From the NCBI GenBank assembly GCA_016704485.1, contig JADJAA010000001.1, forward strand, positions 1,554,824 through 1,618,823: a stretch of 64,000 nt of DNA, written 5' to 3'. The DNA is from Flavobacteriales bacterium. Lineage in GTDB: Bacteria; Bacteroidota; Bacteroidia; Flavobacteriales_F; PHOS-HE28. How positions within the stretch are numbered: the first letter of the stretch is position 1; the number at the start of each line of letters is the position of its first letter. Below, one piece after another: positions 23,461 through 43,362 of the stretch. Under the pieces are notes generated by a model, which searched no databases, was not told the DNA's origin, and saw nothing but the letters and a program-made list of their open reading frames with translations. Both the position numbers and the translations under genes were made by a program.

Positions 23461-23476
23461 ACACCGGTAGTGCTGT

Positions 23477-24274: not shown

Positions 24275-24302
24275 TATGTCCGTGCTGCGTGATCCTCTTC
24301 CG

Positions 24303-25448: not shown

Positions 25449-27004
25449 TTCAACAACGCCTCCAATTCGTCCAACAATTTCACACGGTCGGCGGCCAATT
25501 GGCGCAGGCCGGGTTCTCCCTTTTTGCCGTTGATCAGCTCGGCGGGCGTGGCATACTTCACTTGCTCGTACACCACCTCCTTGTAGCGGTTTATGCTGAG
25601 GTCCCAGTTGTTGGCCTTCAAGTCCGCAAAGGGCACCAGAAAGCTCTGGTCGGTTCGTGCACGTTTGCTTTCACCTTTCGCACCGAAGCGCGCTAGGATG
25701 TCGGCGATGTTGCTTTTCTCGTGCAGCGTTTTCGCTCCCTTGGTGGGCTCGGTGTATTGGAGTTCAAGCTGTTCTTCGGTGAGTTGCGGTGTGCGCTTAT
25801 CATCCAACGAGAAACCGTCGGCACGCATGTCGTAGAACCACACGTTGTCGGTACCGCCGCTATCGGTCTTGGTAAAGATCAGCACCGCGGTGCTCACCCC
25901 TGCATAGGGTTTGAATACGCCGCCGGGCATGCTGATCACCGCTTGCAATTGCTGGCGTTCGATCAGTTCCTGCCGCAGTTGCTTGTGCGCCTTGCTGCTG
26001 CCGAAGAGCACACCATCGGGCACGATCACAGCTGCGCGGCCACCTGTGCGGAGCATGCGCAGGATCAGACCTAGGAAGAGCAACTCGGTCTTCTTGCTGC
26101 TCACTGTGCGCAAGATCGCAGGGTCCACAGCGTCGTGGTCCAAGCTGCCTTTGAACGGCGGGTTCGCTAACACCAGCGAGAAGCGCTCACTGATGTGGCC
26201 TTGCTCTTTGCTAAGCGCATCCTGCCCGATCAGTTGCGGGTGCTCAATGCCGTGCAACATCATGTTCATGGCACCAATGCGCAACATGCTGGAGTCGAAC
26301 TCGACCCCGGTGAAGAGGTTGGTGTTGTAATGCTCGCGGAACTTCTTCTCGTGGAAGCTGTCCGGGTGCGTGCGCCGTATCTCTTCGCTTGCCGCCACCA
26401 AGAAACCGCACGTGCCGGCACTGGGATCGCAGATGGTATCGGTGGGTTGCGGAACCATCAGTTGCACCATCATGCGGATGATGTGGCGCGGTGTGCGGAA
26501 CTGGCCGTTGCGTCCTGCCGTAGCGATCTTGCCCAGCAGGTATTCATAGAGGTCGCCCTTGGTGTCGCGGTCGGCCATGTCCAGCGCGGCGATCATTTGC
26601 ACGGCGCGGTCCAGCAACCGCGCGGAGGGGATCATGAACGTAGCACCCTTCATGTGCTCACTGAACACGCTGCCCTCGCGCCCCATCTGCTTCATGAAAT
26701 CGAAGACCGTGAGGTTATCGTTCTTCGCATCAGGCCGCGTAAAGAGCGCGAACAATGTATCCGGGTCCTTGTCCTTGAAACTGCTCCACCGCAACGCCTT
26801 GTACTTGGGCGGGTAAATGGGATCCTTGATGGGCCCACCGAGCTTGGCGCTCTGCTTCTCTTTGGTGGTCTGGATCTCATCCATCCGGCGCAAAAAGAGC
26901 AAGTAGGTGATCTGTTCGATAACCGTGAGCGGATTGGCGATGCCGCCAGTCCAGAAGGCCTCCCAGAGGCGGTCGACGTCGGAGCGGAGTGTTCCGTTTA
27001 TCAT
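25445..27004 (-). CDS. hsdM: Type I restriction-modification N6-adenine DNA methyltransferase (HsdM)
   Basis: HsdM_N region present. Motif I ICDPSAGTCGFLVAA and motif IV LANPPFKGS are both intact. Confidence 0.9.
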   Translation of the reverse strand: MINGTLRSDVDRLWEAFWTGGIANPLTVIEQITYLLFLRRMDEIQTTKEKQSAKLGGPIKDPIYPPKYKALRWSSFKDKDPDTLFALFTRPDAKNDNLTVFDFMKQMGREGSVFSEHMKGATFMIPSARLLDRAVQMIAALDMADRDTKGDLYEYLLGKIATAGRNGQFRTPRHIIRMMVQLMVPQPTDTICDPSAGTCGFLVAASEEIRRTHPDSFHEKKFREHYNTNLFTGVEFDSSMLRIGAMNMMLHGIEHPQLIGQDALSKEQGHISERFSLVLANPPFKGSLDHDAVDPAILRTVSSKKTELLFLGLILRMLRTGGRAAVIVPDGVLFGSSKAHKQLRQELIERQQLQAVISMPGGVFKPYAGVSTAVLIFTKTDSGGTDNVWFYDMRADGFSLDDKRTPQLTEEQLELQYTEPTKGAKTLHEKSNIADILARFGAKGESKRARTDQSFLVPFADLKANNWDLSINRYKEVVYEQVKYATPAELINGKKGEPGLRQLAADRVKLLDELEALLK

Positions 27005-27017: not shown

Positions 27018-28226
27018 TCAATGTTTGGTGATGGTGGTAAATTCCCATTTAGACTGTCCGTTCAGTTCGACTTGTTTGACTTGGCCGGAAACGAGGTCGC
27101 CATCCACAAGGCTGTGTAGTTTTATCAGATCCTTGTTGATGTAGGCATCGCCAGCATGGGCGTAGGTGTTATCGTTGCGTTTCTTGACCACGACGCGGCC
27201 CAGTTCTTTGGTATCACCGTCGAGTAGGGGAACTCCGTCGCTGCCTACCGCTTCCTCGTGTAGCCAGGTTCGGTTCGCCTTGGGGTCTGGATACTTTGCT
27301 GCGAACTTCTTGAACCAGACCAACACGTCCATGAGCTGGAACACGATGGTGCTCAAGAGGTAAGGCGTTACACCATGCTCGTGTAGTGCTTCGAGATTGT
27401 CCAAGCTGTAATTGGAATCCTCAGCGGTCTCGTCCGCATGCGAGCTTTCGCTGGTTACCCGCAGAATATTGTCCAGTGCATCGGCAACGATCCGGGGCAT
27501 CATCGGGCGGTCACACTTCAAGGCCACCGTGGCCGAAGAACGGCTCGGATAAAGCACGCGCTCGCCCCGCAGGAACAGTGCTGACAAGCGTTGGTTGACC
27601 CTCGGCTTTACAAGGACATCGGGTAGTAACCCGTGCCGATGCGCGGCATAGAAGAAGTGCTCCACTACCTGACGCAAAGGATTCATGAATAAGCGATCAC
27701 TACCGGACTTGTCCCCGCGATCCACAAAGCGCAATGCGTCCATGAACATAGGGTCGGCAACGGCATCCAAATAAGGAACTTGGAGCACTGCGAACACATC
27801 GGCATACCTATCACGAAGCGCTTGCTCGTTGCTTCGATCAACAAGGCTCTGTAGTTCCGCGTATAGGTCCTTCTCGTTCCCTTTCAAGTACCGCCGCTCA
27901 TCACGACGGTTCTTTGTTGCACCTTCGTCAAAGCCGGTATTGATCACATACGGAATATGAATGTTCGCTCCTTTCCATTGGTCCAGATCCCTGCGGGCTT
28001 CATGCAGGTGGTCGATGTCCTCGGTGGGTGAATGTTCATCCACCTGCCCTCTGGCATCGAGGATCAAGGCTTTGAAACGCTTTTCTCGGATCGGTTCCTT
28101 AGCCTCGGCCCAGGTCTTGAACCAAGTCACTTCGAAACCGTGCGCGACCGCCTTAGCAATTTGGGCTTTGGCGTATGCTTCATCGTCATCTACTAAGGCG
28201 ATCGGAACCAGGTCAAACAGTGTCAT
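27018..28226 (-). CDS. Receiver (REC)-like domain protein with uncharacterised C-terminal output domain
   Basis: Likely start MTLFDLVPIALVDDDEAYAKA (acidic pair after beta-1). Putative phospho-acceptor Asp in KALILDARG. Thr in IPYVINTGF. The C-terminal ~300 aa are unknown and contain an Rx4H motif (RQVVEH). The start overlaps the stop of the upstream kinase gene by ~14 nt, and the gene ends 13 nt before the hsdM start. Confidence 0.55.
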   Translation of the reverse strand: MTLFDLVPIALVDDDEAYAKAQIAKAVAHGFEVTWFKTWAEAKEPIREKRFKALILDARGQVDEHSPTEDIDHLHEARRDLDQWKGANIHIPYVINTGFDEGATKNRRDERRYLKGNEKDLYAELQSLVDRSNEQALRDRYADVFAVLQVPYLDAVADPMFMDALRFVDRGDKSGSDRLFMNPLRQVVEHFFYAAHRHGLLPDVLVKPRVNQRLSALFLRGERVLYPSRSSATVALKCDRPMMPRIVADALDNILRVTSESSHADETAEDSNYSLDNLEALHEHGVTPYLLSTIVFQLMDVLVWFKKFAAKYPDPKANRTWLHEEAVGSDGVPLLDGDTKELGRVVVKKRNDNTYAHAGDAYINKDLIKLHSLVDGDLVSGQVKQVELNGQSKWEFTTITKH

Positions 28227-30909
28227 GCGAAATGGGAAGGTCAATGGTGAAGTGGACAAACATTTGAGTGGATACAGCTTCCCGGTCAAATGGTATCCAA
28301 TGATTCTCGTCTATACGTTGATCGCGTTCAAAACTCGATCGGTACTTGTCATCGCTCACTGGCAGGTTACCCGACACGAACTTTCCGCCGTGGTTGGCAA
28401 TGATCCGATCGATCAGATAGCCGCCTATGCCATTGCCCTTTTTCATGTCCAGACGCTTGCCAAAGGTGATGAAGTGCTCATGGGTAAAACCTTCCGGAAA
28501 GGGTTTGCCGTTGTTCTCGATGGTGATAACCAATCGCGTTCGTTGAGGTTCAATACGCGTTGATACCCTCACCCGTACGACCAATTGTTCCTGATCCGAT
28601 CGAAGGCCGTGTTTGGCCATATTGATGAACAAGTTCTGGATGACAAGTGCGAACTGTTGTTGATCGACATGTGCGATCACTCCTTCAGTGGTTTCTAGTC
28701 CAGCTTCACATTCGAAAATGACCATAAGCGCTTTCACCTGGTCGGCAAGTCCGCGCAATTCCGTTCGGAACAGTCGACGAAGGTCGATGGGCACTGGTCT
28801 TAGACTCTCCTTATCTGATCGGATCACCGCATTGATCAATTGAAAGAGACCGCGCATGCGATCCAATCCACTATTCATTGTATCTAGGGCGGTGGTGATC
28901 GTAGACTTTTCAACTGGGCCCAAACTGTTGAGTACTGCATGGATCTCGGCCATGGGTTGCTCCAGAAGCGCCACCACCGGGCGGAAGCTGTGCTCCACTG
29001 CACCAAGGATCTGCCACTCATCAGTGGAGAGGCCATGCTGTTTTTCCTGCCTAGCGATCTCCTCCTTCTTCGCCAATAGAATGGATTCCTTCCGTTCGCG
29101 AACAATGCGCAGTTGATCCTTGAGTTCGGGTAAGCGAACCCGAATTCTCAGAACGTCTGCTTTGGCTATGAAAGCGATCGTACTTCCTTGGTGGTATGCG
29201 TCGAGCTGATCTTGGATCGTGGGCGTTCTTAGTTCTGTTGCGAGGTATTCGGTATTAGCACGAGCCGCATCCACACGGAACATGAATACATTGCTTCCCA
29301 CGGCGATCGGTCCATCTACCGGGTCGAATAAGGTCGGCTTCAACTTTCCGCCCACCCGTGCAAGTAGCAGTGCTGGCACATCCAATCTCTTCAGTCCCTT
29401 CTTGACAGAACCGGTTTCATGTTGCCCATCACGCGCCGTGCGCCTCATGTCGAGGACATCCGTTGAAAGCTCGGAGACCTGGAAGAGCGGCAGACCGGCG
29501 AGGTCGCCCATGGAGAGGATATCGTCCGAAAGCACGGTGCCGAGTTCAACCACGTCCACACCATCCGCTTCGGCCACGATATGGGCTTGTTGAAGCAGGC
29601 TGGCAAACCGACTCATGCTCCAAGACACATGCTCGTCGGAACGGATGTCAGAAACCTTCACGTCCAAAACACCTTGTAAGGTATAAGTGCTATCCAACGC
29701 CTGCAGCACGCTGCTAACATCGAGTGTTATTTCGGATCGCGTCTTGTATGTGACATGCAAACCCGCATCCACGAATCGGACAGGCGCATTCGTTGGCCGT
29801 GATCCATTCAAAACAATGATCGAGGTCTTTATCCCTGAGTAGGGTGTGAAGGATCCTGCTGGCAACGAGATCACTGCTTCGAGCAACCCTAGGTCAAGAA
29901 TCTGTTTGCGTAGATGCGCTCTGTTGATGCCGAACAACATACTCTCGGGCACAAGGATCACCGCCTTCCCCTCGGGTGCAAGCCGCTTGAGGATCTGGTT
30001 GATCGCTATCTCATAGGGTTCTATCGCGCGTAGCCTTCCTTCCTCTTTCACTCGACCACCGAAAGGTGGTGCACTAATGCAATGCGTATACTTCTTGTTG
30101 GAAGCACCGGGTGCTGATGGTTCGTTCAAGGCGGCGTTCAGGTCTGCCCCGAGAATACGTGCTTGCAGCGTATTGAAGAAGAATGCGAATTGGTTGAAGA
30201 ATACCGCGTCGAGCTTTACAGAATGTGGCGCACGCGCTGCGAGCACTGCTGGCAATACGCTCGCATCCGCAGCTGGGTCGAATACCTCTTCCACGTCTCC
30301 GAGCAGCCGCGCCATAAGCATTGCAACGGACCATGGCGTACAGAACTGGCCCATGTGACTATCGCGCAAGAGGAGGCTACGCATTTCTTCCACATACTCG
30401 ATCGGTTCCAAACCCGCTGATGCCATGAGAAAAAGCTCAGTTTGTACTGGGCTTGTTGCCAGTGCGCCGCCATTTTTAAGAAGATACGAATGCTGCTCCC
30501 CAAAGTCCTTAAACTCCTCTGCCAATTCATTCAAGGTGGACCATAATCCTTCTCCTCTTTGAGCGATCGTAGGCAACACTCCTGCTGGGCGCACGGCCAA
30601 GGCATAAATGAGTGCCAGCTCCAAGCCAACGGTCTGCGCGAAGGGCATGGATCGTAGCGCATTGCGCAATTCCCATGCGTGGGCCTGAAAAAAACGGACC
30701 CGGTTCAACATACGTTCTGGATCCAACTGTAAACTACCGTCATCGGATATACTAACACGCCCACCAGACAACTCCACCTCAGCAAGCAAGCTCGATGGCT
30801 CAACGTCCTTCTGGCTCAATAAGACCTTGACGATATTACAGACACCCTCCAAAGTATCCGAGCCGTTCTTCAGGCGAAGGGCACATATTATGGCGTCTAT
30901 CAGTTTCAT
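28213..30909 (-). CDS. Fusion protein: degenerate N6-adenine MTase-like domain + HsdS-like TRD + histidine kinase (HisKA + HATPase_c)
   Basis: MTase fold present: GQFCTPWSVAMLMARLLG...VFDPAADASVL (the glycine-rich SAM loop is degenerate) and ISAPPFGG (motif IV with Asn/Asp replaced by Ala). TRD-like stretch: VGSNVFMFRVD...STIAFIAKADVLRIRVRLP. H-box: AVEHSFRPVVALL. N box: VIQNLFINMAKHG. G boxes: IENNGKPFP and GNGIGGYLIDRIIANHGG. Confidence 0.75.
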   Translation of the reverse strand: MKLIDAIICALRLKNGSDTLEGVCNIVKVLLSQKDVEPSSLLAEVELSGGRVSISDDGSLQLDPERMLNRVRFFQAHAWELRNALRSMPFAQTVGLELALIYALAVRPAGVLPTIAQRGEGLWSTLNELAEEFKDFGEQHSYLLKNGGALATSPVQTELFLMASAGLEPIEYVEEMRSLLLRDSHMGQFCTPWSVAMLMARLLGDVEEVFDPAADASVLPAVLAARAPHSVKLDAVFFNQFAFFFNTLQARILGADLNAALNEPSAPGASNKKYTHCISAPPFGGRVKEEGRLRAIEPYEIAINQILKRLAPEGKAVILVPESMLFGINRAHLRKQILDLGLLEAVISLPAGSFTPYSGIKTSIIVLNGSRPTNAPVRFVDAGLHVTYKTRSEITLDVSSVLQALDSTYTLQGVLDVKVSDIRSDEHVSWSMSRFASLLQQAHIVAEADGVDVVELGTVLSDDILSMGDLAGLPLFQVSELSTDVLDMRRTARDGQHETGSVKKGLKRLDVPALLLARVGGKLKPTLFDPVDGPIAVGSNVFMFRVDAARANTEYLATELRTPTIQDQLDAYHQGSTIAFIAKADVLRIRVRLPELKDQLRIVRERKESILLAKKEEIARQEKQHGLSTDEWQILGAVEHSFRPVVALLEQPMAEIHAVLNSLGPVEKSTITTALDTMNSGLDRMRGLFQLINAVIRSDKESLRPVPIDLRRLFRTELRGLADQVKALMVIFECEAGLETTEGVIAHVDQQQFALVIQNLFINMAKHGLRSDQEQLVVRVRVSTRIEPQRTRLVITIENNGKPFPEGFTHEHFITFGKRLDMKKGNGIGGYLIDRIIANHGGKFVSGNLPVSDDKYRSSFERDQRIDENHWIPFDREAVSTQMFVHFTIDLPISHDTV

Positions 30910-30971
30910 GCAACGGGGGTCAAAGTAAGCGGTGGAGGGTTATGGTGTAGATGTGTTTGCAGGTTATGATC

Positions 30972-32234
30972 TCAAGCGACTTTCTCCAGTCGGTTTGTCG
31001 GCAGAAGTTGGGCAGCCATACGATCCATGACCTCCCATTCCGGACGTGTGTACGAGTTGCTCTCCGTGACCACCGGGATCCTGAATTCGCCCATGGCATC
31101 CTCGCGCATAGCCCATTGATCCTTCTGGTCGTAGAGCTTTGTTCCGGGCAAAAGCATCAGCGGCCAAGCCTTAACGTCCCTGCAGCCTTTGGATAAGAGG
31201 TGGTCGATACTACGCTGGAAACTTTCCAAGGTCTGTCCGGGCAACCCGTAGATCAAACTCACTTCGAAAGGAATCTCGCGCTCCACAAGCTGTTCAATAG
31301 CAGCATCGACAAGATCCATCCGATTGGCGCGGTCAATTTTCTTGGACACTGCATGGTCCGTGGTCTGCAACCCGAACTCCAAGTGGAAGTTGGCTTGCGT
31401 ACAAAGGTCCAGGAATGCATTAACCTGTTGGCCTCGGATATTCTCAAAGCGCGATTGCAGGGTGAAGGTGGAGCGCGTACGGAGTTGAACGATCTCTTGC
31501 ATTATATCCAGGCACTCCTTCCCAGCGTTGAAGATGGGGTCGAGTATGTTCACGCGTTGCACACGATGTTCAGTGAGAAATGCTAACTCTTTAAAGACTT
31601 TATCCAGTGGGTGCTTATGCACGCGGTGAGTGGCGAGGTCGCGGTGTGCGCAAAATGAACACCGGTAGGGGCAGCCGCGTTTGGTCTCCAACCGTACCAT
31701 ACCGGCTCCCATTGGTACAGGCAATTCGCCAGTGAGATACGGTGAGGCCAGTTGTGTGAAGTCCACTGGTACGTTCACGAACACGGGTTCGTCGGCATCG
31801 AGATGGTCCGTCAATTCGGCAAAGGCTTGTTCGGCTTGTCCGGAGATGAAGACCTGGCAATCCGGATACCGACGCAGCAATTCTGCTCGGTTCCCGTAGG
31901 TGACTTGATACCCTCCGAGGACCACCTTGCCAAGGAACCCAAGACGACGAAGCAATGCGATGATGCCATTGGTGAGGTACTCGTTCCAGATGTAAGCCGA
32001 GAGCGCGATGGCGTTAAAGCGGCTCACATCAAGCGCCGCGAGTTGCACTTCGAATTGCTCGGGTGTGGCCGTGCCGCCGTGTTCGAGCATGTTGATCGAG
32101 AGGTGTTCCACGTGCATCTGTCCACGCAGCCGTTCATTACTCCGTTGGTGTGCCAAGAGAGATGCGATCGCCAAGGGCTTGGTGATCTCACCGTGCCGGA
32201 TCAGGTCGAAGGATATGATGAGCGTGTTCGTCAT
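30972..32234 (-). CDS. B12-binding-domain radical SAM protein
   Basis: N-terminal cobalamin-binding-like Rossmann region followed by a radical SAM cluster motif (MVRLETKRGCPYRCSFCAHR). The ~420 aa are counted from the probable start MTNTLIISFDL. Confidence 0.8.
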   Translation of the reverse strand: MTNTLIISFDLIRHGEITKPLAIASLLAHQRSNERLRGQMHVEHLSINMLEHGGTATPEQFEVQLAALDVSRFNAIALSAYIWNEYLTNGIIALLRRLGFLGKVVLGGYQVTYGNRAELLRRYPDCQVFISGQAEQAFAELTDHLDADEPVFVNVPVDFTQLASPYLTGELPVPMGAGMVRLETKRGCPYRCSFCAHRDLATHRVHKHPLDKVFKELAFLTEHRVQRVNILDPIFNAGKECLDIMQEIVQLRTRSTFTLQSRFENIRGQQVNAFLDLCTQANFHLEFGLQTTDHAVSKKIDRANRMDLVDAAIEQLVEREIPFEVSLIYGLPGQTLESFQRSIDHLLSKGCRDVKAWPLMLLPGTKLYDQKDQWAMREDAMGEFRIPVVTESNSYTRPEWEVMDRMAAQLLPTNRLEKVA

Positions 32235-32343
32235 TGGTCCTCGCCACCAAGGGTCTATATGGTTGGATAATCGCTCAACCAACGAACTTCCCTATGGCAA
32301 CGGACCAAAAGTCCCGGTCACCTGTGCAGTCTATCTGCACAGT

Positions 32344-33354
32344 TCATTTCGCGTAGTTCTTCTTCATTTCCATCACCCGCAAAAGCAGCGCTTGGCGTAG
32401 TTCTTCCGGCGCAATAACCTGTAGCCCTTCTCCATAAGATAACAACAAGGCTTGTAGCTCGTAGTTCAGCTTCACTTCTAAACGAATAGTCGCGCCGCCG
32501 TCTTTTCTCTTCACTACTTTCTGCGAACCGTGTATAGGCTTTGACTCCAAATAAGGCCAAAGTCTATCCGTGACTTGGATCTTGACAACAACAGCTTCTT
32601 GATCCGCAGGTACACTTACACCAACAACATCCTCAAAATACTCCGTGAAATCCACCTCATCGTTCGGTATGTATTTCACCTTACTGGGTACAATATCCCG
32701 GATCCGGTCCAAGGCCATATTGACAATACGCCCCTCTTCCTCAAGACCAAAAACAAACCAACGGTTGTTATACTGTTTCAAGTAATACGGATGGAGCAAC
32801 ACAATGCTAGGCGCATTTTGCTTGAAGCCTTGGTAAGATATTTCCAAGGCTTGCTCATTGATGATCGAATGAAATAATGTGGTAATGTGCTCGGCACCTT
32901 TCAAATACGGGTTCTGCTCAAACTCGATGACCTGAGCAGCCCCTTGTTTCAGCCCGAAACCAGCTTCCAACCGAGCAACTAATTCATCTACCCATTCAAA
33001 CTGCGGCATGCCCTTAAATCGGCTCAGCGTTAAGAGCGCCTCCTTCAATTGTTCCGCTTCGCTCTCGTTCAGCGGTCGCTTGTTGATAGAGAATTCAAGG
33101 TCACTGTACCGGTAAAAAGTACGCTTTCCGTCTTTGTGTTTCTCCAGCGGGATAGCCCATCCTTGTTCGCTCTCCATGTACTTGATGTCCTCGAAAACTT
33201 GGCGGCGGCTGATGCTTGCACCTGCTCCGGTGAACTCCTCCAACGCCATGTTGCAAGCTTCCATCAGGTCTTCGATGAAATACTCGCGCCCACGGTTCGC
33301 AAAGCAACGGTCCATTGTCTGATAGCGAATAAGGGCATTCTTATTTACGGGCAT
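32344..33354 (-). CDS. WYL-domain transcriptional regulator (wHTH-WYL; BrxR/CapW-like)
   Basis: The ~336-aa size and architecture match BrxR/CapW regulators. The WYL-like core is LLHPYYLKQYNNRWFVFG, with an N-terminal HTH region. It sits at the head of a same-strand defence gene block. Confidence 0.65.
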   Translation of the reverse strand: MPVNKNALIRYQTMDRCFANRGREYFIEDLMEACNMALEEFTGAGASISRRQVFEDIKYMESEQGWAIPLEKHKDGKRTFYRYSDLEFSINKRPLNESEAEQLKEALLTLSRFKGMPQFEWVDELVARLEAGFGLKQGAAQVIEFEQNPYLKGAEHITTLFHSIINEQALEISYQGFKQNAPSIVLLHPYYLKQYNNRWFVFGLEEEGRIVNMALDRIRDIVPSKVKYIPNDEVDFTEYFEDVVGVSVPADQEAVVVKIQVTDRLWPYLESKPIHGSQKVVKRKDGGATIRLEVKLNYELQALLLSYGEGLQVIAPEELRQALLLRVMEMKKNYAK

Positions 33355-34287: not shown

Positions 34288-34750
34288 ATTGGTACATGGC
34301 CTTGTCCCGTAAGTACATGTACTTGTGCCTTTGGTACATGTACTTGTCCCGTGAGTACATGTACTTGTCCCGTAAGTGCATGTACTTGTCCCGTGAGTAC
34401 ATGTACTTGTCCCGTGAGTACATGTACTTGTCCCGTAAGTACATGTACTTGTCCCGTAAGTACATGTACTTGTGCCGTTGGTACATGTACTTGTCCCGTA
34501 AGTACATGTACTTGTGCCGTTGGTACATGTACTTGTGCCGTTGGTACATGTACTTGTGCCGTGAGTACATGTACTTGTGCCGTGAGTACATGTACTTGTC
34601 CCGTAAGTACATGTACTTGTGCCGTTGGTACATGTACTTGTCCCGTAAGTACATGTACTTGTCCCGTAAGTACATGTACTTGTCCCGTAAGTACATGTAC
34701 TTGTCCCGTAAGTACATGTACTTGTGCCGTGAGTATGTGTACCTGTACCA
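34288..34750. repeat. 21-bp tandem repeat array (~22 units) built around the perfect palindrome GTACATGTAC
   Basis: Units are cccgt(a/g)agtacatgtacttgt and gccgttggtacatgtacttgt. All six frames are open across the array because the period is 21. Confidence 0.9.
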
Positions 34751-35457: not shown

Positions 35458-36426
35458 TCAAGCCTTTATGAACTCGTTCACAAAAGCTTGTACAAATTGC
35501 TTGGCTAAAGCAGAGTAAGGCTTGGTCGGCTCTGTCAGTTGCATCAGCAATTCCACCTCTTGCTCGATCATCGCCTCAATTGTTCCTGTGGTCTTTTTTA
35601 CAAGTTTGTTCAATGTACGTGTTGGTACTTTATCCTTGAATGATCTGATATCCTTACCGATCTCGTTCGATAGGTCGATCAATTTCAAGATCATCTCAAA
35701 ACGCATTTTTAATCGCAGAATGTATTCTCTGCGCATATCGACCAACCCCTTTCTATTCAAGCCGTAGATCTCAATGGAACGGATCGCTTTTTGCCAATGG
35801 ATCTCCCTTTTTATCACGTTCTCTGATGAGGGCAAAGCAATGGCCTTCATTACTCCTGAGTCATCGTATTCCAAGTATTTGCTAGGTTCGTCCGTACAAG
35901 GGTTCAACAACAAACATTGTTCGCCTGAAATATCGAACAGCGGCGCACTCGCACGCATTGTTTCATCAAACAATGGAAAAGAGTTTGCCTTTCCTTGTTT
36001 TAGCTTTTTCCATTGATAGGACCCATCTATGGGGTTCTTTCGATACACATATTGATAGCGCGCTCTATTGCAGTCTATGCATGAAGGGAGTAGATTATCC
36101 CATTCCATTGCGAGCTTAGCATATACACCTACTTTAGTTTCGGTCTTGTTCGTCAATTCTACGAGCACTTCGGATTTGGGTCTGAAATGCTCAATATCCA
36201 GCGGTTGTGTGCGCGTGTAAGGTGATTCGCAATATGCACATTTACCATGGAACATAAGCTCCAACAACTCAGGCACTTTTTCGTGCTTGTAAAGCTTGAA
36301 ATCGGGCTTTAGGTCCTTGTGGAAATCGCTTCGAAGCCATGCTTCCACCTCTTCCTTTTCTTTGTTGAAGGCATCCGAGGTTATGGTAAGTGCCTGCGGG
36401 GCATTTACGCGTTTTCGTTTGATCAT
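35458..36426 (-). CDS. HNH endonuclease of the TIGR02646/PtuB type (Septu-like nuclease component)
   Basis: HNH motifs GKCAYCESPYTRTQPLDIEHFRPKS...WDNLLPSCIDCNRARYQ. 322 aa. Lies immediately downstream of the ATPase gene. Confidence 0.7.
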   Translation of the reverse strand: MIKRKRVNAPQALTITSDAFNKEKEEVEAWLRSDFHKDLKPDFKLYKHEKVPELLELMFHGKCAYCESPYTRTQPLDIEHFRPKSEVLVELTNKTETKVGVYAKLAMEWDNLLPSCIDCNRARYQYVYRKNPIDGSYQWKKLKQGKANSFPLFDETMRASAPLFDISGEQCLLLNPCTDEPSKYLEYDDSGVMKAIALPSSENVIKREIHWQKAIRSIEIYGLNRKGLVDMRREYILRLKMRFEMILKLIDLSNEIGKDIRSFKDKVPTRTLNKLVKKTTGTIEAMIEQEVELLMQLTEPTKPYSALAKQFVQAFVNEFIKA

Positions 36427-36434
36427 TGAAGAGC

Positions 36435-38822
36435 TCAGTTGTTCAGGCGCCAGGAAGCATCCGTTAAAGCCTCTATTATCTTCTTAGTGGGTTTGGGAAA
36501 TCGTACGTTGGTCGGTGACTTCATCAAGTGCTCATCGATCAGCCTCAACAAGTACATATCACGCCGACTACTACCGAGAATGCTCTTTCTGTTGAGTCGT
36601 TCATGTAGATCCTTCAGTTGTGCCTTACCCGAATCATCTAACGCCGATGCCTTCGCTATGAGGTTGTAATAGCGGTCAAAGAATTCAGCTGTGCGCGGGT
36701 CCAGGGTTGTACTTAATCCGAATAATTCTGAGGTAAGGAGCTGGTCGGAACGTAAGCCAGCCGGCGAATCCATGTCGTCGTGTACTGTAGCCATGGAAGG
36801 GTCGTCCACATTTCTCTTGACCAATGCTACTTCACCAGCACCCAGCCCATGCAGGCATAGTGGCTCATGGGTGCTCGCGATGAATTGGATAAGCGGAAAT
36901 GTCTGTTCCAATCTTCTTAAGATGCTCATGCGCCAACTCGGGTGCAGATGTGCACCGATCTCATCAATTAGTACCACGCCTCTAATTTGATGCGTATCCG
37001 TTGGATTGCCTGCCATTATATCACAGGCTAGACCAACCATGGTCTTGTAACCCGCACTAAAATGCTTTAAGCGGGTGAATGACCCGTTCACGAAAAGCCC
37101 GAATTGTGTTGGCTTGTTGTTTTCAAATTGAAAGTCGAGACGTGTAGAATTATCTGTAAGATCCAGCAGGTCCTTCAAGGCCACACAAACATCGAAGAAC
37201 TGCTGTTGATTCTTTACCACTATGGTACGTAACCACTCTTCGGCATCTACCATGGGATAGAACGGGTCAAAGAGGTTCTGGATGTTCTTATTCACTCCCC
37301 TTTTCTCTAACAGATCAGAACTCTTGCCTTTTTGCGGCAGCAATCGAACAGGCCCGTATGCACGAAGAAATATATTCGGGACCTCACCTTGCTCCCATTT
37401 TAATCCGCTATTCGTGATGTTCACTACGATAGGATCTGTTCGCTGATGAAAGTAGACTTCAATTCTACCTGACGTAGCTCCACGCCTCAAGCTAGTGCTG
37501 AAATGCTCCTTCATCTTACTCAAGGCTTTCTTGCCGCTGAGTATCAATGCAAGTGCTTCGAGCAGCGAACTTTTTCCTGACCCGTTCTCACCCAGCAGCA
37601 TTTTCCAACCGCTGTGTCGAAAGGTTTCCTGTTGTGGAGATTCGGAGCCGTTTTCGTCGATCGTCTTCCGGCGTTCCTCTTGATTGCCTCCCGCTGTTTC
37701 CGTGTTCAAGTCTAAGTTCAGTTCACGTTCTGTGTCTACTAGGTCTTTCGGGCGTTCTTGGGGGATCAAGAATACAGCCTTCTCGAAGATCCTGTAATTC
37801 TCAACTATTAATTTGCTAATGGTCAGCGCTTGATGCGCGACTTTCTCCTTGGACGGCGCATTCTCTGTGGCGGTTTTCGGAGGAGTTCTTTGCGCCTCGG
37901 AACTCGTCTTCTTTGGAGACTCCTTATTAGCGCGTGTTGATCCCGGTTTCGTACGCGCTCCGGTCTCAGCTTCTAATAAGGACCCAGGCTTATTGAGCCC
38001 TTTGCTTATTGTTTCGACGTGCAGGCCGTCGCCTTGAATGAGGATTTTTAGTCCGAAGTCCTCCTTAAGAACATGGTTACTCAGATTCCGCATTGGACTT
38101 TGCGGGTCTATCAGTCCTTTCAAGAAGTGATCTTCTTCTACGGTTCGAGGTAGTTTCTCACCCTTTTTTTTAAGAACCAGAGACTTTGTCAAGTCGCGAA
38201 CTCGGTGAACCATATCACTCCTTCTATTGATGGCGGATTTCCGGTTCAGGTCCAGAGTTTCAATGGTCACCTCGGCTCGTCGCTTCTGCATGTGCCCTAA
38301 AGTGGAACGAGGCTTTATCATTCCATTAGATGAATAGTCGAAGTACTCCTCCGGATCGTCTTCATAAGGATTCAGCAAATACGGTTCTTCTTTCTCGAGC
38401 GCACTCCCCCGAGGCTGGTCATCAGCATGCTTGATAGGAACACGTTTTCCGGCGATGGGAAACTGTGCTCCCTTTGCAAAACTGCACTCATTGCATATGG
38501 GTAGCATGTTCTGCCAATCAAACAATAGCCACCAATAGTGGTCGCCAACCTGCTCATTTGGTTCCACTTTTACCGGTCGGTACAGGTCGATGTGTACCGT
38601 CTTTTCATTCAAGGGTGCTTCGCAATACGCACATGCATTATTGGAGGTTTCCAGAAGATCTCGGTTTACATCACGAGAATACTGTGGAGCCTTGTGTCTT
38701 ATCTGGCTTCGCTTCTCTAAAGGTTGCGCATAAAACTTCCGAAGTTCATTGAACGTCTTCTCTCCTTCCGTACTGTACTGTAGGTCTGGTGGAGATACTT
38801 TACTTCGGTTCAGTTTTCTCAT
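36435..38822 (-). CDS. AAA_21/ABC-type ATPase (PtuA-like) with an additional N-terminal HNH-like domain
   Basis: N-terminal HNH-like region NACAYCEAPLNEKTVHIDLYRPVK...WQNMLPICNECSFAKG. A low-complexity linker is followed by Walker A MLLGENGSGKSSLLEAL, Walker B VVLIDEIGAHLHP and FIASTHEP. Confidence 0.7.
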   Translation of the reverse strand: MRKLNRSKVSPPDLQYSTEGEKTFNELRKFYAQPLEKRSQIRHKAPQYSRDVNRDLLETSNNACAYCEAPLNEKTVHIDLYRPVKVEPNEQVGDHYWWLLFDWQNMLPICNECSFAKGAQFPIAGKRVPIKHADDQPRGSALEKEEPYLLNPYEDDPEEYFDYSSNGMIKPRSTLGHMQKRRAEVTIETLDLNRKSAINRRSDMVHRVRDLTKSLVLKKKGEKLPRTVEEDHFLKGLIDPQSPMRNLSNHVLKEDFGLKILIQGDGLHVETISKGLNKPGSLLEAETGARTKPGSTRANKESPKKTSSEAQRTPPKTATENAPSKEKVAHQALTISKLIVENYRIFEKAVFLIPQERPKDLVDTERELNLDLNTETAGGNQEERRKTIDENGSESPQQETFRHSGWKMLLGENGSGKSSLLEALALILSGKKALSKMKEHFSTSLRRGATSGRIEVYFHQRTDPIVVNITNSGLKWEQGEVPNIFLRAYGPVRLLPQKGKSSDLLEKRGVNKNIQNLFDPFYPMVDAEEWLRTIVVKNQQQFFDVCVALKDLLDLTDNSTRLDFQFENNKPTQFGLFVNGSFTRLKHFSAGYKTMVGLACDIMAGNPTDTHQIRGVVLIDEIGAHLHPSWRMSILRRLEQTFPLIQFIASTHEPLCLHGLGAGEVALVKRNVDDPSMATVHDDMDSPAGLRSDQLLTSELFGLSTTLDPRTAEFFDRYYNLIAKASALDDSGKAQLKDLHERLNRKSILGSSRRDMYLLRLIDEHLMKSPTNVRFPKPTKKIIEALTDASWRLNN

Positions 38823-38823
38823 C

Positions 38824-40638
38824 TTAACTATGTGCTATTCTGTGGAACGTGTTCGCCAAATAGTGCTTCGGGTTAGTCCTGGCGATCAGGTCGAATTGTG
38901 CTTCGCTCAGGCCGGCCAGCATATTGGCATAGAGCTCCTTTTCTGATAGGTGGTTCCTCACGACAAAAAAGTCTGTACCGAACAGGACCCGTTCACCGAG
39001 TTTCTTCACTGAATGGTCGATCGTCTTTTTCAGTAACGGTTGTATCCACGGATCGTGCAATATGTAACTGATATCTGCATAAACGTTCTCATAGCGCAAC
39101 ATCATACTGCAAATGATCGTGTACCAGTCAGCTTCCATCCAGTGAGCGTAGACACGTGTCCATTGGATGCGCTTGTGTTCGTTGTCATAATACGATCGAT
39201 GAAATAATCCGCTTTCAGCATGCAGGTTCAGATCTTGGTTGTACTGGTCATTATCGGCTTCTAAATGTCGTTTCCATTCATCAACACCACCAAAATGTGC
39301 CAAGCAGATCTTCAATTGAGAAAGTGATCGGAATTTTTCATCGGGACCTTTTTCGAACAACGTTTGAATTCGGGGTTGGCAGCTCACGAGGTGCTCCCTC
39401 AAGAGGTCATCATCCAGCAGGCAGAGGTAGTTCAATGGATGTGTGTAGTTCTTTTGAAAGTCGATTCCGCGAAGTTCCAACAGGTCAATGGGTGCGATCA
39501 CCGTATCGTCATGTGCGTCCTCTATTCCGGTTGAACGCTTGAAGACAGGATGCTTTGCCATTTCATCAGTGATCTTGTCTCGGGAATATATTGTGCCATG
39601 CACGCAATGGGTCATGATCGGTAAACCTTCCTGAGCTGCATACGCCCACACGGGCAATAGGTCTTCATCGAAAGGATAATAACCTAAAGCCGGGTAGATC
39701 TTGAATCCGCAGCAACCATTGCTTAGATACTTCTGGACTTTACATTCAAGCAAGACTACTTTACCGTATTCTACTTTCCACTTGAAGAAGTCATCCTCTT
39801 CACGAATTCGGCGTGGATCAATGAAGATGAAAGGCAGTATTTGATGTCCATGATCTTCACCTTTGGTAAGTTTTACAAGCCCTTCCATTTGTTTGTGGAA
39901 ATCACCTAATCGGTGGACCTTCCCCGCACCCATGTATTTCATATCCATTGGTAGAACAATGAATTTGGTTTCGGCTGGGTACTGGGCCCGGAGTTTTTGA
40001 AAGAGTAGACTTAGTCGCCTTTGGTCATCACCGGTTTTCGCACTTTTCGTCTCGTAACCATAAGAGCTGAAGCGTGCGATAAGTACGTATCGCTCCAAAA
40101 GGTCCATGTACTCCGTAGCAGGAAAGCTCTTGATCATTGGAACAAACTTTTGTAGAAGGAACCAGATCTGTCTTCGAACGGCTGGGATGAATGCAATAAT
40201 TGCTGCTACGAATATGGTCTTGATCGCCCAGTGTAATTCATGAAAGTATAATTTATACTTTACAAGTAACGCCAAGAACGCCGCGATATATTTCGACCCG
40301 CCATAGAAGGTGCTTTCAACCAAAACTTCATAAAGGAATAATAACACATAGATCGTAACGATCAAATTAAACGCACCTCGTACAAACTTCAAGAAGCTGT
40401 TTCGTTGGATCCTGTTCTGCGCCTTTACCTTGTTTATGCGTATGGTTTCTTGTGCCGGTTCATACCGCTCGGCATACTTCCGTCGGTTGCACTTCACGTA
40501 AAGTTTCATGAAGTAATCCATTCGCGCCCACTTGTACAACGGCCACGGAAGAATACCCTTTGCATGCTCTGGAGGCACGTGATAGTTGTTGAACAAGTGC
40601 ACGTGGCAGTTCACTATGGGGTCCTTCACTTTACTCAT
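38824..40638 (-). CDS. Amidohydrolase-family (TIM-barrel metal-dependent hydrolase) protein with inserted hydrophobic membrane-like segments
   Basis: N-terminal metal-binding motif HxH (CHVHLF). A hydrophobic insertion follows (FNLIVTIYVLLFLYEVL, IAAFLALLV...IFVAAIIAFIPAV). The C-terminal region is ...LFGTDFFV. Its stop lies 1 nt upstream of the PtuA-like start. Confidence 0.6.
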   Translation of the reverse strand: MSKVKDPIVNCHVHLFNNYHVPPEHAKGILPWPLYKWARMDYFMKLYVKCNRRKYAERYEPAQETIRINKVKAQNRIQRNSFLKFVRGAFNLIVTIYVLLFLYEVLVESTFYGGSKYIAAFLALLVKYKLYFHELHWAIKTIFVAAIIAFIPAVRRQIWFLLQKFVPMIKSFPATEYMDLLERYVLIARFSSYGYETKSAKTGDDQRRLSLLFQKLRAQYPAETKFIVLPMDMKYMGAGKVHRLGDFHKQMEGLVKLTKGEDHGHQILPFIFIDPRRIREEDDFFKWKVEYGKVVLLECKVQKYLSNGCCGFKIYPALGYYPFDEDLLPVWAYAAQEGLPIMTHCVHGTIYSRDKITDEMAKHPVFKRSTGIEDAHDDTVIAPIDLLELRGIDFQKNYTHPLNYLCLLDDDLLREHLVSCQPRIQTLFEKGPDEKFRSLSQLKICLAHFGGVDEWKRHLEADNDQYNQDLNLHAESGLFHRSYYDNEHKRIQWTRVYAHWMEADWYTIICSMMLRYENVYADISYILHDPWIQPLLKKTIDHSVKKLGERVLFGTDFFVVRNHLSEKELYANMLAGLSEAQFDLIARTNPKHYLANTFHRIAHS

Positions 40639-40766: not shown

Positions 40767-41864
40767 TTAAGAATTAGGTACTATCTGCACACCAAACCGG
40801 AACTGGAAATTCTTCTTCACGAAATCATCTCCGGAATACCAATTAGCCACTATTCGAACGACGCTATTCAATGCTAAACCTGCGCTGAATTGCCAAAGAT
40901 CGATACCTCCCTCTGACGTACGATCAAGATTATGCCAAAAAACAGCATTTCCACTTATGTGAGAATAGCGCACTTGACCAAAAAGAGCCATGCGATCCTT
41001 AATCCCAGTAAGTGAAAATACCATTTCTGCACCATTATCAAAGTTTTGGCCAACGACATTTGTGTCTACCCCGATCTTAGGAAGATCGAAGGATAATCGA
41101 GGTGCATAATGCAAGCGAATGGACAATCGACGGTTCAGTGAGGTAAATCCGACAATTGGCACACCGAAATTCAAAACCCCGTTTCCGCCACCGCCAAGAA
41201 TACGTTGCACCTGATCTTGGAAAGTGGCGCTGGAGTCTGAAACTGGCACTGTATCTGGCTCACTCGTCTTGTTGCTGATCAGCGCACCAAAACCCATTCG
41301 CACTGGTCCGAAATAATCATAAACAACCTCCGAGTATAGAGATGCTTTCTGTGCTTGCCCACTATACGTGAGGAGATTATTCTTTAGGAGTTTTCCCCGT
41401 TCCTCTTCAGAACTGAAACCATCGTAGAAATATTCCGTCGCAATTCGCCGGACCGCCAAGCCATAAAGCCCTTCTGTTACATCCGGATCGAACCGGATGC
41501 GCAACAATTCTTCTCTGTACGACTGGAAATCCTGCCTTCGCTGTCGATATGCGGCTTTCAGTGAATCGATCAGTTCTTTTGAATCGGCGGAGCGGTCATT
41601 ATCCAGTGCTTGGAACGAAGCTCTTCGGAATGCTTGTTTGTGTTTCTTGTTTTCGGCTCGATCGTCTTTCAAAAATGCATATACACTCTTTACTTGTATT
41701 GACGAATCAGACGGTTCAAGGAATTTATTCAGTTCAACTTTTGTTAAGTCTATGTTGCTTTTCCGAGACTCACTGTTTGGAAAAACAAATGGCCCCGTTT
41801 GTGCGAACATTGTGCATGAGGTTGAAAGCAGGAATATCGCAATTGTTGTTCGTCTCATTGTCAT
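40767..41864 (-). CDS. Secreted hypothetical protein (signal peptide; possible outer-membrane protein)
   Basis: N-terminus MTMRRTTIAIFLLSTSCTMFAQ. No domain recognised. Confidence 0.45.
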   Translation of the reverse strand: MTMRRTTIAIFLLSTSCTMFAQTGPFVFPNSESRKSNIDLTKVELNKFLEPSDSSIQVKSVYAFLKDDRAENKKHKQAFRRASFQALDNDRSADSKELIDSLKAAYRQRRQDFQSYREELLRIRFDPDVTEGLYGLAVRRIATEYFYDGFSSEEERGKLLKNNLLTYSGQAQKASLYSEVVYDYFGPVRMGFGALISNKTSEPDTVPVSDSSATFQDQVQRILGGGGNGVLNFGVPIVGFTSLNRRLSIRLHYAPRLSFDLPKIGVDTNVVGQNFDNGAEMVFSLTGIKDRMALFGQVRYSHISGNAVFWHNLDRTSEGGIDLWQFSAGLALNSVVRIVANWYSGDDFVKKNFQFRFGVQIVPNS

Positions 41865-41884
41865 ATACTTTTCAGTTCAATTAT

Positions 41885-42676
41885 TTAGACTTCTACACCA
41901 TAAGATTCCGTGAACGCCGCTTCAGCGTATGATTTGCTGGCGTAAGCAAACCCTTTGTCTCCCCACAGAGTGGTTCCCCAACTGTTTCGCACGATGAAAT
42001 GATCAGGCGTGTATCCGACAATAGAGACAGCGTGGCCACCTAGGTTGTCGCTGGCACGGTAGCGCGCTAGTTTGCCCCGTGTCTCTTTCGCATCCATAAA
42101 GGCGTTGTCACAGTTCAGCCGGGTGAGAATGGGGCCTTTGTTGGCGATCCAGCGCCGCCATTCATTCAGGTCTTGGCCTAATGAGAAGTAGCGCATCACC
42201 TTCAACTGCGCAGCAATCGCGTAGAACACATCGGTCTCATCCGGATAGAGTATTCCGCGACCGAAAGGCAACACGCTATCCAGCACTGCGCCGTATTTGC
42301 GCGATACATCGAGTGCTGCTTTCAGACTGGTTCCATCGCTTTCAATGAATGAGGTTGGTTTGTCGGTGAATTCATCGATCTCCTTTGCGGCCATCCATGT
42401 AAAGCGCGTGCTAAGCCTACGGTTGGTGGCGATCCTTCCGGCTTTTGCGAAATGCCAACGCAGCACACCTTCGGCGCAAGCCCAGCCAACGCACGAGCCG
42501 GTACTTCCTTGGTCGCCAATGGTCCACCAATCTTCTCGCAAGTCTTTTTTAGGCGGAGGTGGTGCTGGTGCGCGTAGTGCGCCAGCGGCACGTGCTGTGT
42601 GCAAGTTCCAATCGTTTGCGGTGTTCAATGAAGGAAGGCAATTGAGGACGCGGGGAGGTGATTTCTTTGTTGCCAT
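41885..42676 (-). CDS. C1 (papain-like) cysteine peptidase family protein
   Basis: Motif QGSTGSCVGWACAEG around the catalytic Cys. A His-containing region lies near the C-terminus (GGHAVSIVGY). Confidence 0.55.
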   Translation of the reverse strand: MATKKSPPRVLNCLPSLNTANDWNLHTARAAGALRAPAPPPPKKDLREDWWTIGDQGSTGSCVGWACAEGVLRWHFAKAGRIATNRRLSTRFTWMAAKEIDEFTDKPTSFIESDGTSLKAALDVSRKYGAVLDSVLPFGRGILYPDETDVFYAIAAQLKVMRYFSLGQDLNEWRRWIANKGPILTRLNCDNAFMDAKETRGKLARYRASDNLGGHAVSIVGYTPDHFIVRNSWGTTLWGDKGFAYASKSYAEAAFTESYGVEV

Positions 42677-42708
42677 TTTTTTGAGGAATTTGTTGACTTA
42701 AGCTTCGT

Positions 42709-43362
42709 TCATGCGCTCCACCGCCACCCCAACACATCACTCGCCGGGTAACTACTTACACAAACACTATTACTCTGATTACCGCCTAACACCATGATGC
42801 CGGTACCGCGCGTTTCGAGGTAGAAGGCCACATGGCCACTGGTGGTGCTGTTGCCGCGTTTGAAGACTGCGATGCATCCGGGAACGGGCTCGTTAATTTT
42901 TTTGCCCCATTGCAACCAGCTGCGAGCGGCGGCGGAGTTGGTGCCGCGCAAGTTTGCTTTGGTGATGCACCAGTTAACGAATGACGAGCACCATGCCACC
43001 TCATCGGTGGTTGCTTTGAGACCTGTAGTACTGTGGTATTCAATTATGCGCTGGTTATGCTCAGGACCTGGATATTCCTTAACACCGATCTCTGCACGGG
43101 CGATCTTCAACCAAGCAGGCTCATCTATCGGTGGAGCGGTGGCAACCGGTTCGATGTAGGTGGTGCTTACCCAACCGGTAAGTGTGCCATCGCGCAATTT
43201 TGCGCTCACTTGCGCCCAACCATTCCGCGGTCCTTGCAAGAGGTCCAATGCGGTATGCTGCGGTAGGCGACCGATGATGGATCGATTGGTACTTGGGCCT
43301 TCGCGAAGGCGAAGTACAGAGGCGGTGGTGCGGTGAGTTGGCATGGTGTTTCGTTCGAACAA
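42709..43362 (-). CDS. SH3-like + CHAP/NlpC-P60-type amidase domain protein (TIGR02594-like)
   Basis: Conserved Cys in WCSSFVNWC and His in GHVAFY. The N-terminal region is SH3b-like. Confidence 0.5.
   Translation of the reverse strand: MFERNTMPTHRTTASVLRLREGPSTNRSIIGRLPQHTALDLLQGPRNGWAQVSAKLRDGTLTGWVSTTYIEPVATAPPIDEPAWLKIARAEIGVKEYPGPEHNQRIIEYHSTTGLKATTDEVAWCSSFVNWCITKANLRGTNSAAARSWLQWGKKINEPVPGCIAVFKRGNSTTSGHVAFYLETRGTGIMVLGGNQSNSVCVSSYPASDVLGWRWSA

Follow-up and report, generated by a model that had tools for sequence, protein, structure and literature searches.

What is an amidohydrolase gene doing at the head of a Septu-like operon? The question is raised by a three-gene block in a Flavobacteriales bacterium (assembly GCA_016704485.1, contig JADJAA010000001.1), at positions 35458–40638 of the 64,000-nucleotide (nt) stretch of DNA analysed here, hereafter the window. 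The block consists of three open reading frames (ORFs) of 604, 795, and 322 amino acids (aa), all on the minus strand; identical proteins (P0001 and P0121) are on record from a Flavobacteriales metagenome-assembled genome (MAG). An earlier note on this DNA had described them as an amidohydrolase, an ABC-type ATPase bearing an HNH domain of its own, and a PtuB-type HNH nuclease. We report that the block near-certainly holds a Septu PtuAB module, and we propose, with a probability of about 0.55, that the amidohydrolase is a facultative, co-expressed add-on contributing to defence. We found no description of this recurrent, co-diverging, and facultative partnership of an amidohydrolase with Septu in the papers and profile libraries searched.

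The 795-aa protein matches the PADLOC PtuA model PDLC00292 over its full length (524 bits, E = 1.6e-157), and the top ten PADLOC matches listed for it are all PtuA models. Its Pfam matches are AAA_21 (53 bits), AAA_15, and SMC_N (41 bits, cutoff 40), and its best matches among PDB sequences are the retron and Septu PtuA chains 9n69, 9kjx, and 8ee4. Both Walker motifs are intact, and the invariant residues include Walker A (GENGSGKS, residues 411–418), the Walker B pair Asp620–Glu621, and His652. Directly downstream of ptuA, after a gap of 8 nt, lies a TIGR02646-type HNH protein that matches the PADLOC PtuB model PDLC00329 (230 bits, E = 1.2e-68). It scores below the NCBIfam cutoffs, with 58 bits for the PtuB model and 47.9 bits versus 52.15 for TIGR02646. 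Its motif, CAYCE...DIEHFRPK...WDNLLPSCIDCN, includes WDNLL and CIDCN, and the catalytic residues (EH...N...CN) are all present. The two PADLOC scores thus bear out the earlier note's reading of a PtuB-type HNH nuclease following an AAA_21/ABC-type ATPase, as in Septu. By homology, the pair would form a complex and protect against phages.

Comparison by hidden Markov models with other ATPase families left the PtuA models best by far. The earlier note had allowed that the ATPase might align instead to SMC/RecF housekeeping proteins; the SMC_N score of 41 bits stands against 524 for PADLOC PtuA, and the NCBIfam matches to RecF (32 bits, cutoff 172), RecN (16 bits, cutoff 408), and Rad50 are limited to the Walker A region and lie far under their cutoffs. 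An ATPase of the OLD, PARIS, or Gabija type was likewise rejected: AriA chains in the PDB reached 17 bits (E = 0.0085) versus up to 58 bits for PtuA chains, and the Pfam scan of the locus proteins returned no Toprim domain. The PADLOC paper (PMC8565338) lists a single Septu variant that has an additional gene, the retron-type Septu II. This assignment was also set aside. No reverse transcriptase (RT) domain was found in the ORFs scanned with Pfam between 32 and 43 kb; an Rfam search of the locus gave no RNA family above threshold and no retron non-coding RNA (ncRNA), only chance microRNA matches inside tandem repeats; and the NCBIfam retron-PtuA equivalog scored 96 bits against a cutoff of 500.

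The HNH-like domain and the long disordered linker that the earlier note placed in the ATPase are both there. PtuA residues 49–201 pass TIGR02646 (63 bits, cutoff 52), residues 1–220 match the PADLOC PtuB models (E = 3e-30), and the N-terminus matches the solved PtuB chain 22bu_F among PDB sequences (E = 1e-4). In the AlphaFold2 model, residues 277–329 have no secondary structure and a predicted local distance difference test score (pLDDT) below 50, and a second such disordered stretch (residues 371–400) lies just before Walker A. Among homologues, the linker differs in length and cannot be aligned. What did not survive is the novelty of the fusion. The stand-alone PtuB of the window aligns to positions 1–209 of PDLC00292, indicating that the PADLOC PtuA model already contains the fused HNH, and a metagenome scan seeded by an alignment of HNH-PtuA proteins yielded 80 loci, nearly all of them with an HNH at the N-terminus, the ATPase, and PtuB following downstream. 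The HNH-PtuA fusion is therefore a known, already modelled, and little-discussed subtype.

The degenerate active site of the fused domain is a new detail of this subtype. The signature D-[IV]-E-H-[FW]-R-P-K is kept in all seven stand-alone PtuBs examined, and the catalytic His is replaced in five of the seven PtuA N-terminal domains paired with them, as well as in most of 15 aligned HNH-PtuA sequences. Leu takes its place in the window (IDLYRP); Asn, Thr, Pro, or Arg do so in other fused domains. The later CN motif of the window copy reads CS. Both CxxC zinc knuckles persist, as does the Asn, and the fused copy has neither the ~22-aa insert of PtuB nor its C-terminal helical domain. Because the catalytic motif is lost, the fused HNH is probably a PtuB duplicate that has turned into a non-catalytic arm, not a second nuclease.

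The operon opens with a gene for a member of Pfam Amidohydro_2 (PF04909; 43.7 bits, cutoff 26.4). Its AlphaFold2 model is a TIM barrel (pLDDT 74.6), in which His12, His14, Lys313, His344, His448, and Asp556 lie at or next to predicted strands of the (β/α)8 fold. Across 21 diverse members of the family, His12-x-His14, Asp232, Lys313, His344, His448, and Asp556 are invariant; we take these residues to be the classical ligand set of binuclear-metal amidohydrolases, and the protein is probably a catalytic, binuclear-metal enzyme. The nearest structures in Foldseek are the uncharacterised metal hydrolase 3ij6, which is the best PDB match at 14% identity, the ACMSD decarboxylases (4ifk), and phosphotriesterases, at 10–14% identity. 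The fold did not point to a substrate: Foldseek against the PDB returned just generic Amidohydro_2/phosphotriesterase barrels, and neither TatD-like nor adenosine-deaminase-like chains occur among the 50 best matches listed.

A helical insert of ~180 aa follows barrel strand 1 and carries the membrane-like hydrophobic insertions that the earlier note had recognised, at residues 88–111 and 135–162. Their hydropathy peaks in the Kyte–Doolittle 19-residue profile are 2.21 and 1.85, and the family average is hydrophobic too. Basic residues flank the outer helix ends and the protein has no signal peptide, which argues for a two-pass membrane hairpin with a cytoplasmic catalytic domain. A total of 838 homologues were recovered, nearly all of ~570–630 aa and ~40% identical, and those that carry names come from Bacteroidota. 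A profile run against 1.84 billion cluster representatives gave 344 relatives at E < 1e-30, of which ~50 are full-length with the insert; short relatives (~360–450 aa) match the profile only from position ~170 onward and presumably lack it. Carriage of the amidohydrolase by mobile elements was considered and dropped, as tblastn found no match in 50,697 phage and 72,556 plasmid records.

Is the amidohydrolase linked to Septu beyond this window? Here, the stop codon of the amidohydrolase gene and the start codon of ptuA are separated by a single nucleotide (AGT TAA g ATG), exactly as the earlier note had read it. Simple scans detected no terminator-like sites at either gene junction, the sites found being no more than the shuffled expectation. 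A promoter scan gave no excess over shuffled sequence either. Since the sigma-70 consensus used is ill-suited to Bacteroidota, these scans are weak evidence. The amidohydrolase is probably co-transcribed and translationally coupled with PtuA. Scanning a single genome for each GTDB species (185,579 genomes) yielded 297 confirmed stretches carrying the amidohydrolase, a lower bound because the scan relied on two peptide patterns; 80 of them were fetched, by similarity ranking and not as a census, with genes called simply as the longest ORFs.

The co-occurrence that the earlier note asked about does recur, and the case that would have refuted its reading, an amidohydrolase gene unlinked to PtuAB homologues elsewhere, does not hold. 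PtuAB adjoins the amidohydrolase in nine of the 80 Bacteroidota loci. In six (L053, L054, L060, L063, L065, and L076), the amidohydrolase, PtuA, and PtuB follow in order on the same strand, with gaps of −4 to 50 nt where both gene ends could be called; in L033, PtuAB lies two genes away. Further linkage was seen in L081–83, L131, and L134. Of the closest relatives of the window amidohydrolase, P0003 has PtuA and PtuB 219 nt downstream, and P0004 has DUF2779 and a type I restriction–modification (RM) system after it. The same three genes are carried by the cultured strains Flavobacterium granuli BE124 (L054), Ferruginibacter sp. HRS2-29 (L053), and Flagellimonas sp. S3867 (L065). The PtuA of L065 is the ordinary short form, showing that the pairing is not confined to HNH-fused PtuA. 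PtuA is also the commonest downstream operon partner of the amidohydrolase family, accounting for 5 of 22 coupled downstream genes.

Amidohydrolases linked to Septu share 37–60% identity with one another and are dispersed across the family tree (neighbour-joining on identity distances). When nine linked loci are compared in pairs, amidohydrolase identity correlates with PtuA identity (Mantel r = 0.67, p = 0.006) and PtuB identity (r = 0.64, p = 0.009), the value for PtuA versus PtuB being 0.96. This co-divergence fits three genes inherited as a unit within lineages.

Septu is not the only company that this amidohydrolase keeps. Among the 36 copies with a coupled neighbour, conflict-type partners dominate. 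A caspase, an unknown 495-aa protein, and a metallo-β-lactamase (MBL)-fold protein lie upstream of the amidohydrolase in nine loci, and downstream of it in L072; in L066, its downstream neighbours are a subtilase gene and then an MBL gene of the same family. An unknown ~700-aa protein and a 490-aa MBL protein are coupled to it in five loci. Protease-associated MBL proteins are validated, protease-activated DNase effectors of defence systems (PMC12642450). An M19-like gene of amidohydrolase fold stands directly upstream in L044, L067, and L070; a γ-glutamyl transpeptidase, an NS endonuclease, a ResIII helicase, and a phage-sheath-like protein were each met once. A patatin-Omp85 gene is found ~200 nt downstream in L068 and L069, which count as solitary under the 100-nt rule. 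Moreover, the domain occurs in fusions. P0216 (699 aa, cut by the contig end) joins an nSTAND1 domain (residues 14–405) to the N-terminal part of the amidohydrolase, in which the HxH and PMDM motifs are kept, and P0201 (1475 aa) consists of a NACHT-like P-loop, a long middle region without a Pfam match, and a C-terminal amidohydrolase copy.

A further observation concerns a β-rich domain of ~270 aa directly upstream of the amidohydrolase in four otherwise different loci (L060:6983-7987, L071:47-829, L081:6978-7973, and L084:837-1652). Its copies are 28–37% identical (E down to 6e-46) and match no Pfam or PADLOC model; the N-terminus is signal-peptide-like in L060, and the domain is fused to Calx-beta in L084. 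The β-rich protein and the amidohydrolase may form a two-gene core for part of the family.

Viewed from the other side, the position upstream of HNH-PtuA is a variable slot. Among 47 metagenome HNH-PtuA loci with at least 2 kb of sequence upstream of PtuA, 13 have a tightly coupled upstream gene (same strand, ≥250 aa, within ~60 nt), and most slot genes stand at gaps of −4 to 43 nt. A patatin-like phospholipase occupies the slot in six loci (L092, L113, L115, L116, L121, and L147), five of them belonging to the 47 and L121 having less upstream sequence. A HerA-like ATPase with a NurA-like nuclease occupies it in four (L088, L095, L099, and L110), the amidohydrolase in one of the 47 (L131), and unknown proteins in the remainder. 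An MBL-DUF6530 protein lies 157 nt upstream of PtuA in L159. The patatin, HerA plus NurA, and MBL-DUF6530 loci look like further multi-gene Septu variants, none of which is described in the papers searched. In L030 (positions 9729-14361), an M19-like gene, assigned to its family from L044, precedes HNH-PtuA and PtuB on one strand, and the three converge without a gap on the hairpin amidohydrolase. The amidohydrolase thus occupies a slot that elsewhere holds classical effector enzymes.

How far, then, can the amidohydrolase be counted as part of the defence system? A number of observations weigh against it. Just two of the 80 HNH-PtuA/PtuB loci carry the gene (L131, with a gap of 10 nt, and L134, at a contig end), which means that PtuAB does not need it, and two near relatives of the window PtuA (P0123 and P0126) are without it. 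On the contig of the closest relative (P0002/P0122), ~6.5 kb of further defence genes, encoding a PLD-SNF2 helicase, methyltransferase, MBL protein, and GmrSD-HNH protein, separates the amidohydrolase from PtuAB; in L028 and L030 the two are adjacent and convergent. At 42 of the 78 loci with a callable gene (54%), the amidohydrolase has no same-strand neighbour within 100 nt, and the genes around these solitary copies belong to 130 different Pfam families, mostly housekeeping. Shared host phylogeny could contribute to the co-divergence. PADLOC-DB v2 gave zero families at E ≤ 0.1 for the amidohydrolase, and no tie of its family to defence was found in the literature searched, where queries on Septu with amidohydrolase, PF04909 with defence, TIGR02646, and nSTAND1 with amidohydrolase brought up nothing relevant and the 2020 eLife paper on conflict systems does not mention amidohydrolases. 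With 2 of 80 HNH-PtuA loci and about half of the homologues solitary, the amidohydrolase, which the earlier note counted as the third gene of a Septu-like module, is not a core gene of Septu. PtuAB might then be complete by itself and the amidohydrolase a separate single-gene element that favours the same hotspots, shares one transcript, and has no functional interplay with it, a reading to which the many unrelated modules beside the amidohydrolase also lend support. We consider this unlikely, because the same order with gaps of at most 10 nt is found in the window, L053, L054, L060, L076, and L131, between amidohydrolases as diverse as 37–60% identity; because the amidohydrolase co-diverges with PtuA and PtuB and has PtuA as its most frequent downstream partner; and because the STAND NTPase fusions show the domain working inside multi-domain conflict proteins.

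An alternative role within the system is that of a sensor or regulator, with the amidohydrolase detecting a membrane or small-molecule cue or restraining PtuAB, and PtuB acting as the sole effector. The pairing of the family with several effector modules (MBL nucleases and the PtuB HNH) would suit such a role, as would its place at the C-terminus of the STAND proteins P0216 and P0201, the position that usually holds the sensor in well-studied STAND proteins (Avs, NLRs). The P0201 copy is catalytically dead, having lost all metal ligands, which suits a binding or sensor role over that of an effector and adds to the points that weigh against our proposal. There is also a precedent in the upstream gene that controls PtuAB in Septu type II/retron I-A, where the partner acts on PtuAB as a sensor or antitoxin (PMC12640716). 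On the other hand, metal ligands invariant in 21 diverse members argue for catalysis, the same slot elsewhere holds classic effectors (patatin, HerA-NurA), and most PtuAB loci manage without such a partner; we find the sensor role quite improbable. That there is no defence system at all, the ATPase serving SMC/RecF/RecN repair and the amidohydrolase metabolism, could appeal to the weak SMC_N and RecF matches at Walker A and to the many amidohydrolase homologues among metabolic genes. The full-length PADLOC match of PtuA, the PtuA chains in the PDB, the PtuB directly after it, the defence island around the operon, and the sporadic occurrence of the amidohydrolase (at least 297 stretches among 185,579 species genomes) all speak against it. 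The PADLOC and PDB matches effectively refute this reading, to which we allow a negligible chance.

Based on these comparisons, we favour the amidohydrolase as a facultative add-on and, within that reading, an auxiliary membrane-proximal effector as its likeliest role. Solved PtuA and PtuB form a 6:2 complex in which PtuB is bound via the PtuA C-terminal extension (PMC12819146, PMC12640716), with the C-terminal helical domain of PtuB docking onto that extension (PMC12819146), and Septu is reported to be inhibited by ATP and to nick DNA or cleave tRNA-Tyr (PMC12819146, PMC12640716). By analogy, the window PtuA would be an oligomerising ABC-type ATPase whose C-terminal extension holds PtuB inactive until a phage cue arrives, with ATP binding or a partner keeping the nuclease off. 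Infection would release or activate PtuB, which would then nick or cleave DNA or tRNA and abort the infection. The tethered dead-HNH arm of PtuA most likely binds nucleic acid or regulates the complex, and the amidohydrolase would be a cytoplasm-facing TIM-barrel hydrolase pinned to the inner membrane by its two-helix hairpin. We infer all of these biochemical steps, as well as any physical interaction between the amidohydrolase and PtuA.

A wider and more tentative proposal, which we hold to be somewhat short of an even chance, is that the hairpin Amidohydro_2 protein is an undescribed, portable immune module of Bacteroidota that acts alone or in at least three switch architectures (Septu ABC-ATPase/HNH, protease-MBL, and STAND). 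The window would then encode a functional three-component Septu type III, built on an HNH-PtuA chassis that takes an interchangeable upstream amidohydrolase, patatin, HerA-NurA, or MBL protein.

The features of the operon and its surroundings are collected in Table 1.

Table 1 Positions within the window of the operon features and of neighbouring elements.
Feature	Position	Strand	Basis
Amidohydro_2 metal-dependent hydrolase, 604 aa, first operon gene	38824..40638	-	Pfam PF04909
Two-helix hydrophobic hairpin, ~aa 82–162 of the amidohydrolase	40153..40395	-	Kyte–Doolittle 19-residue peaks and helical model
Amidohydrolase/PtuA junction: stop TAA, 1 nt, start ATG	38820..38826	-	Direct sequence reading
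PtuA, HNH-fused subtype, 795 aa	36435..38822	-	PADLOC PDLC00292, Pfam, and PDB matches
PtuB-like HNH at the PtuA N-terminus, aa 1–220, predicted catalytically degenerate	38163..38822	-	TIGR02646, PADLOC PtuB
PtuA linker, disordered and low-complexity, aa 277–329	37836..37994	-	pLDDT <50
PtuB HNH nuclease, 322 aa, intact catalytic motif and C-terminal helical domain	35458..36426	-	PADLOC PDLC00329
365-aa protein gene	40767..41864	-	
Upstream genes (365-aa protein, Peptidase_C1, SH3-CHAP)	40767..43362	-	
Non-coding tandem repeat, 21-bp unit	34292..34746		
Non-coding tandem repeat, 22-bp unit	33501..33894		
Gene trio between Septu and type I RM	28213..33354	-	
Type I RM system, complete	17621..27004	-	
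HsdM	25445..27004	-	
HsdS	24303..25448	-	
HsdR, with N-terminal DUF4145	17621..21079	-	

The surroundings agree with a defence island. Past PtuB, on the same strand, follow tandem repeats, a WYL regulator, a radical SAM/B12 protein, an N6-methyltransferase–HATPase fusion, and a complete type I RM system, which confirms the defence-island setting. The trio between Septu and the RM genes consists of a WYL/WCX regulator (336 aa), a B12-binding radical SAM protein (436 aa), and an 898-aa N6-methyltransferase fused to a GHKL/HATPase_c domain, and may be another defence or modification system. The GC content of the block is 0.461, compared with 0.536 for the window outside 34–42 kb (standard deviation across 1-kb windows, 0.036). 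The earlier note was thus right that the block is AT-richer than its surroundings; the difference is not confined to the three genes, as the low-GC tract spans ~34–42 kb, reaches past them on both sides, and takes in the two tandem-repeat arrays and the upstream 365-aa gene.

Both repeat arrays sit between the WYL gene and ptuB. The first has 17.9 copies of a 22-bp unit, GTGGTACCCTGCACCAAGCTTA, with a higher-order period of 132 bp as well; the second has 21.7 copies of a 21-bp unit, GTACATGTACTTGTCCCGTAA, with 91% matches. Having no spacers, they are not CRISPR arrays, and the long ORFs on both strands over the 21-bp array are repeat artefacts. Upstream of the operon are genes for the 365-aa protein, which has a signal-peptide-like N-terminus and no family match, for a papain-like Peptidase_C1 protein (263 aa), and for an SH3-CHAP protein (217 aa); by eye, neither of the latter two shows an obvious signal peptide.

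The 365-aa gene was considered as a fourth member of the module and rejected. Its homologue P0294 (64% identity) is syntenic in another Flavobacteriales MAG (L168), where it adjoins the same two-component system. There, a different gene and then a type I RM system come after it, and both the amidohydrolase and Septu are missing. Conserved at a site that lacks both, the gene belongs to the conserved flank and marks the island edge. Nor does its product resemble the secreted β-rich protein of L060, L071, L081–83, and L084 (no similarity by tblastn or a small HMM). The three-gene operon is cargo, lying on the margin of a variable defence hotspot.

Septu ranks with the most common defence systems of bacteria, and how it senses infection and is regulated is still debated, the points at issue including inhibition by ATP, sensing of phage tail fibres, and whether DNA or tRNA is the target. 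If our reading is right, the dead PtuB copy on the ATPase of a large Septu subtype would offer a handle on PtuAB control, the repeated recruitment of upstream enzymes by HNH-PtuA would suggest how modular defence operons assemble, and the known immune effectors or sensors would gain, through the amidohydrolase, a new enzyme fold and an activity linked to the membrane, from a phylum (Bacteroidota) in which defence has been little explored. Should the amidohydrolase be no more than a neighbour, what remains is an ordinary Septu system within an ordinary defence island.

Among known systems, the closest is Septu type I, which was reportedly described by Doron and colleagues in 2018 as PtuA-PtuB and is said to have an E. 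coli structure under PDB 8EE4/8EE7. The window shares with it the ABC-type ATPase followed by a TIGR02646-type HNH that match the PADLOC PtuA1/PtuB1 models, the PtuA C-terminal extension, and the C-terminal helical domain of PtuB. It differs in the length of PtuA (795 aa versus 465 aa in the solved Septu protein), in the His-less PtuB paralogue and 53-aa disordered linker added to it, and in the coupled upstream amidohydrolase gene. An extra upstream operon gene is reminiscent of Septu type II/retron I-A (Ec78/Eco7 and Ec83/Eco4; RT, ncRNA, PtuA, and PtuB), whose upstream partner controls PtuAB (PMC8565338, PMC12640716); in the window, by contrast, the partner is a membrane hydrolase. The patatin-PtuA-PtuB and HerA-NurA-PtuA-PtuB loci have the same HNH-PtuA/PtuB core and an upstream enzyme at gaps of −4 to ~60 nt, and differ in which enzyme it is.

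The amidohydrolase itself links the locus to the protease-MBL and STAND (Avs/nSTAND) systems, in which the same family is coupled to caspase/subtilase-MBL genes or fused to nSTAND1/NACHT-like NTPases. In the window, neither a protease-MBL pair nor a STAND NTPase is coupled to the amidohydrolase, and its partner is the ABC ATPase/HNH pair. In structure, it resembles Amidohydro_2, ACMSD-like enzymes, and phosphotriesterases (3ij6, 4ifk, and 1dpm) in the TIM barrel (Foldseek probability 1.0) and the HxH...K...H...H...D pattern, and departs from them in its 10–14% identity, its ~180-aa insert with two transmembrane-like helices, and its conflict-system context. RADAR consists of the RdrA ATPase and RdrB, an adenosine deaminase that serves as an amidohydrolase-superfamily effector and is soluble and of the adenosine-deaminase family. 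No adenosine-deaminase or RADAR model came up for the window amidohydrolase in Pfam or PADLOC, and the resemblance is one of analogy: in both, an ATPase is paired with an enzyme of the amidohydrolase superfamily.

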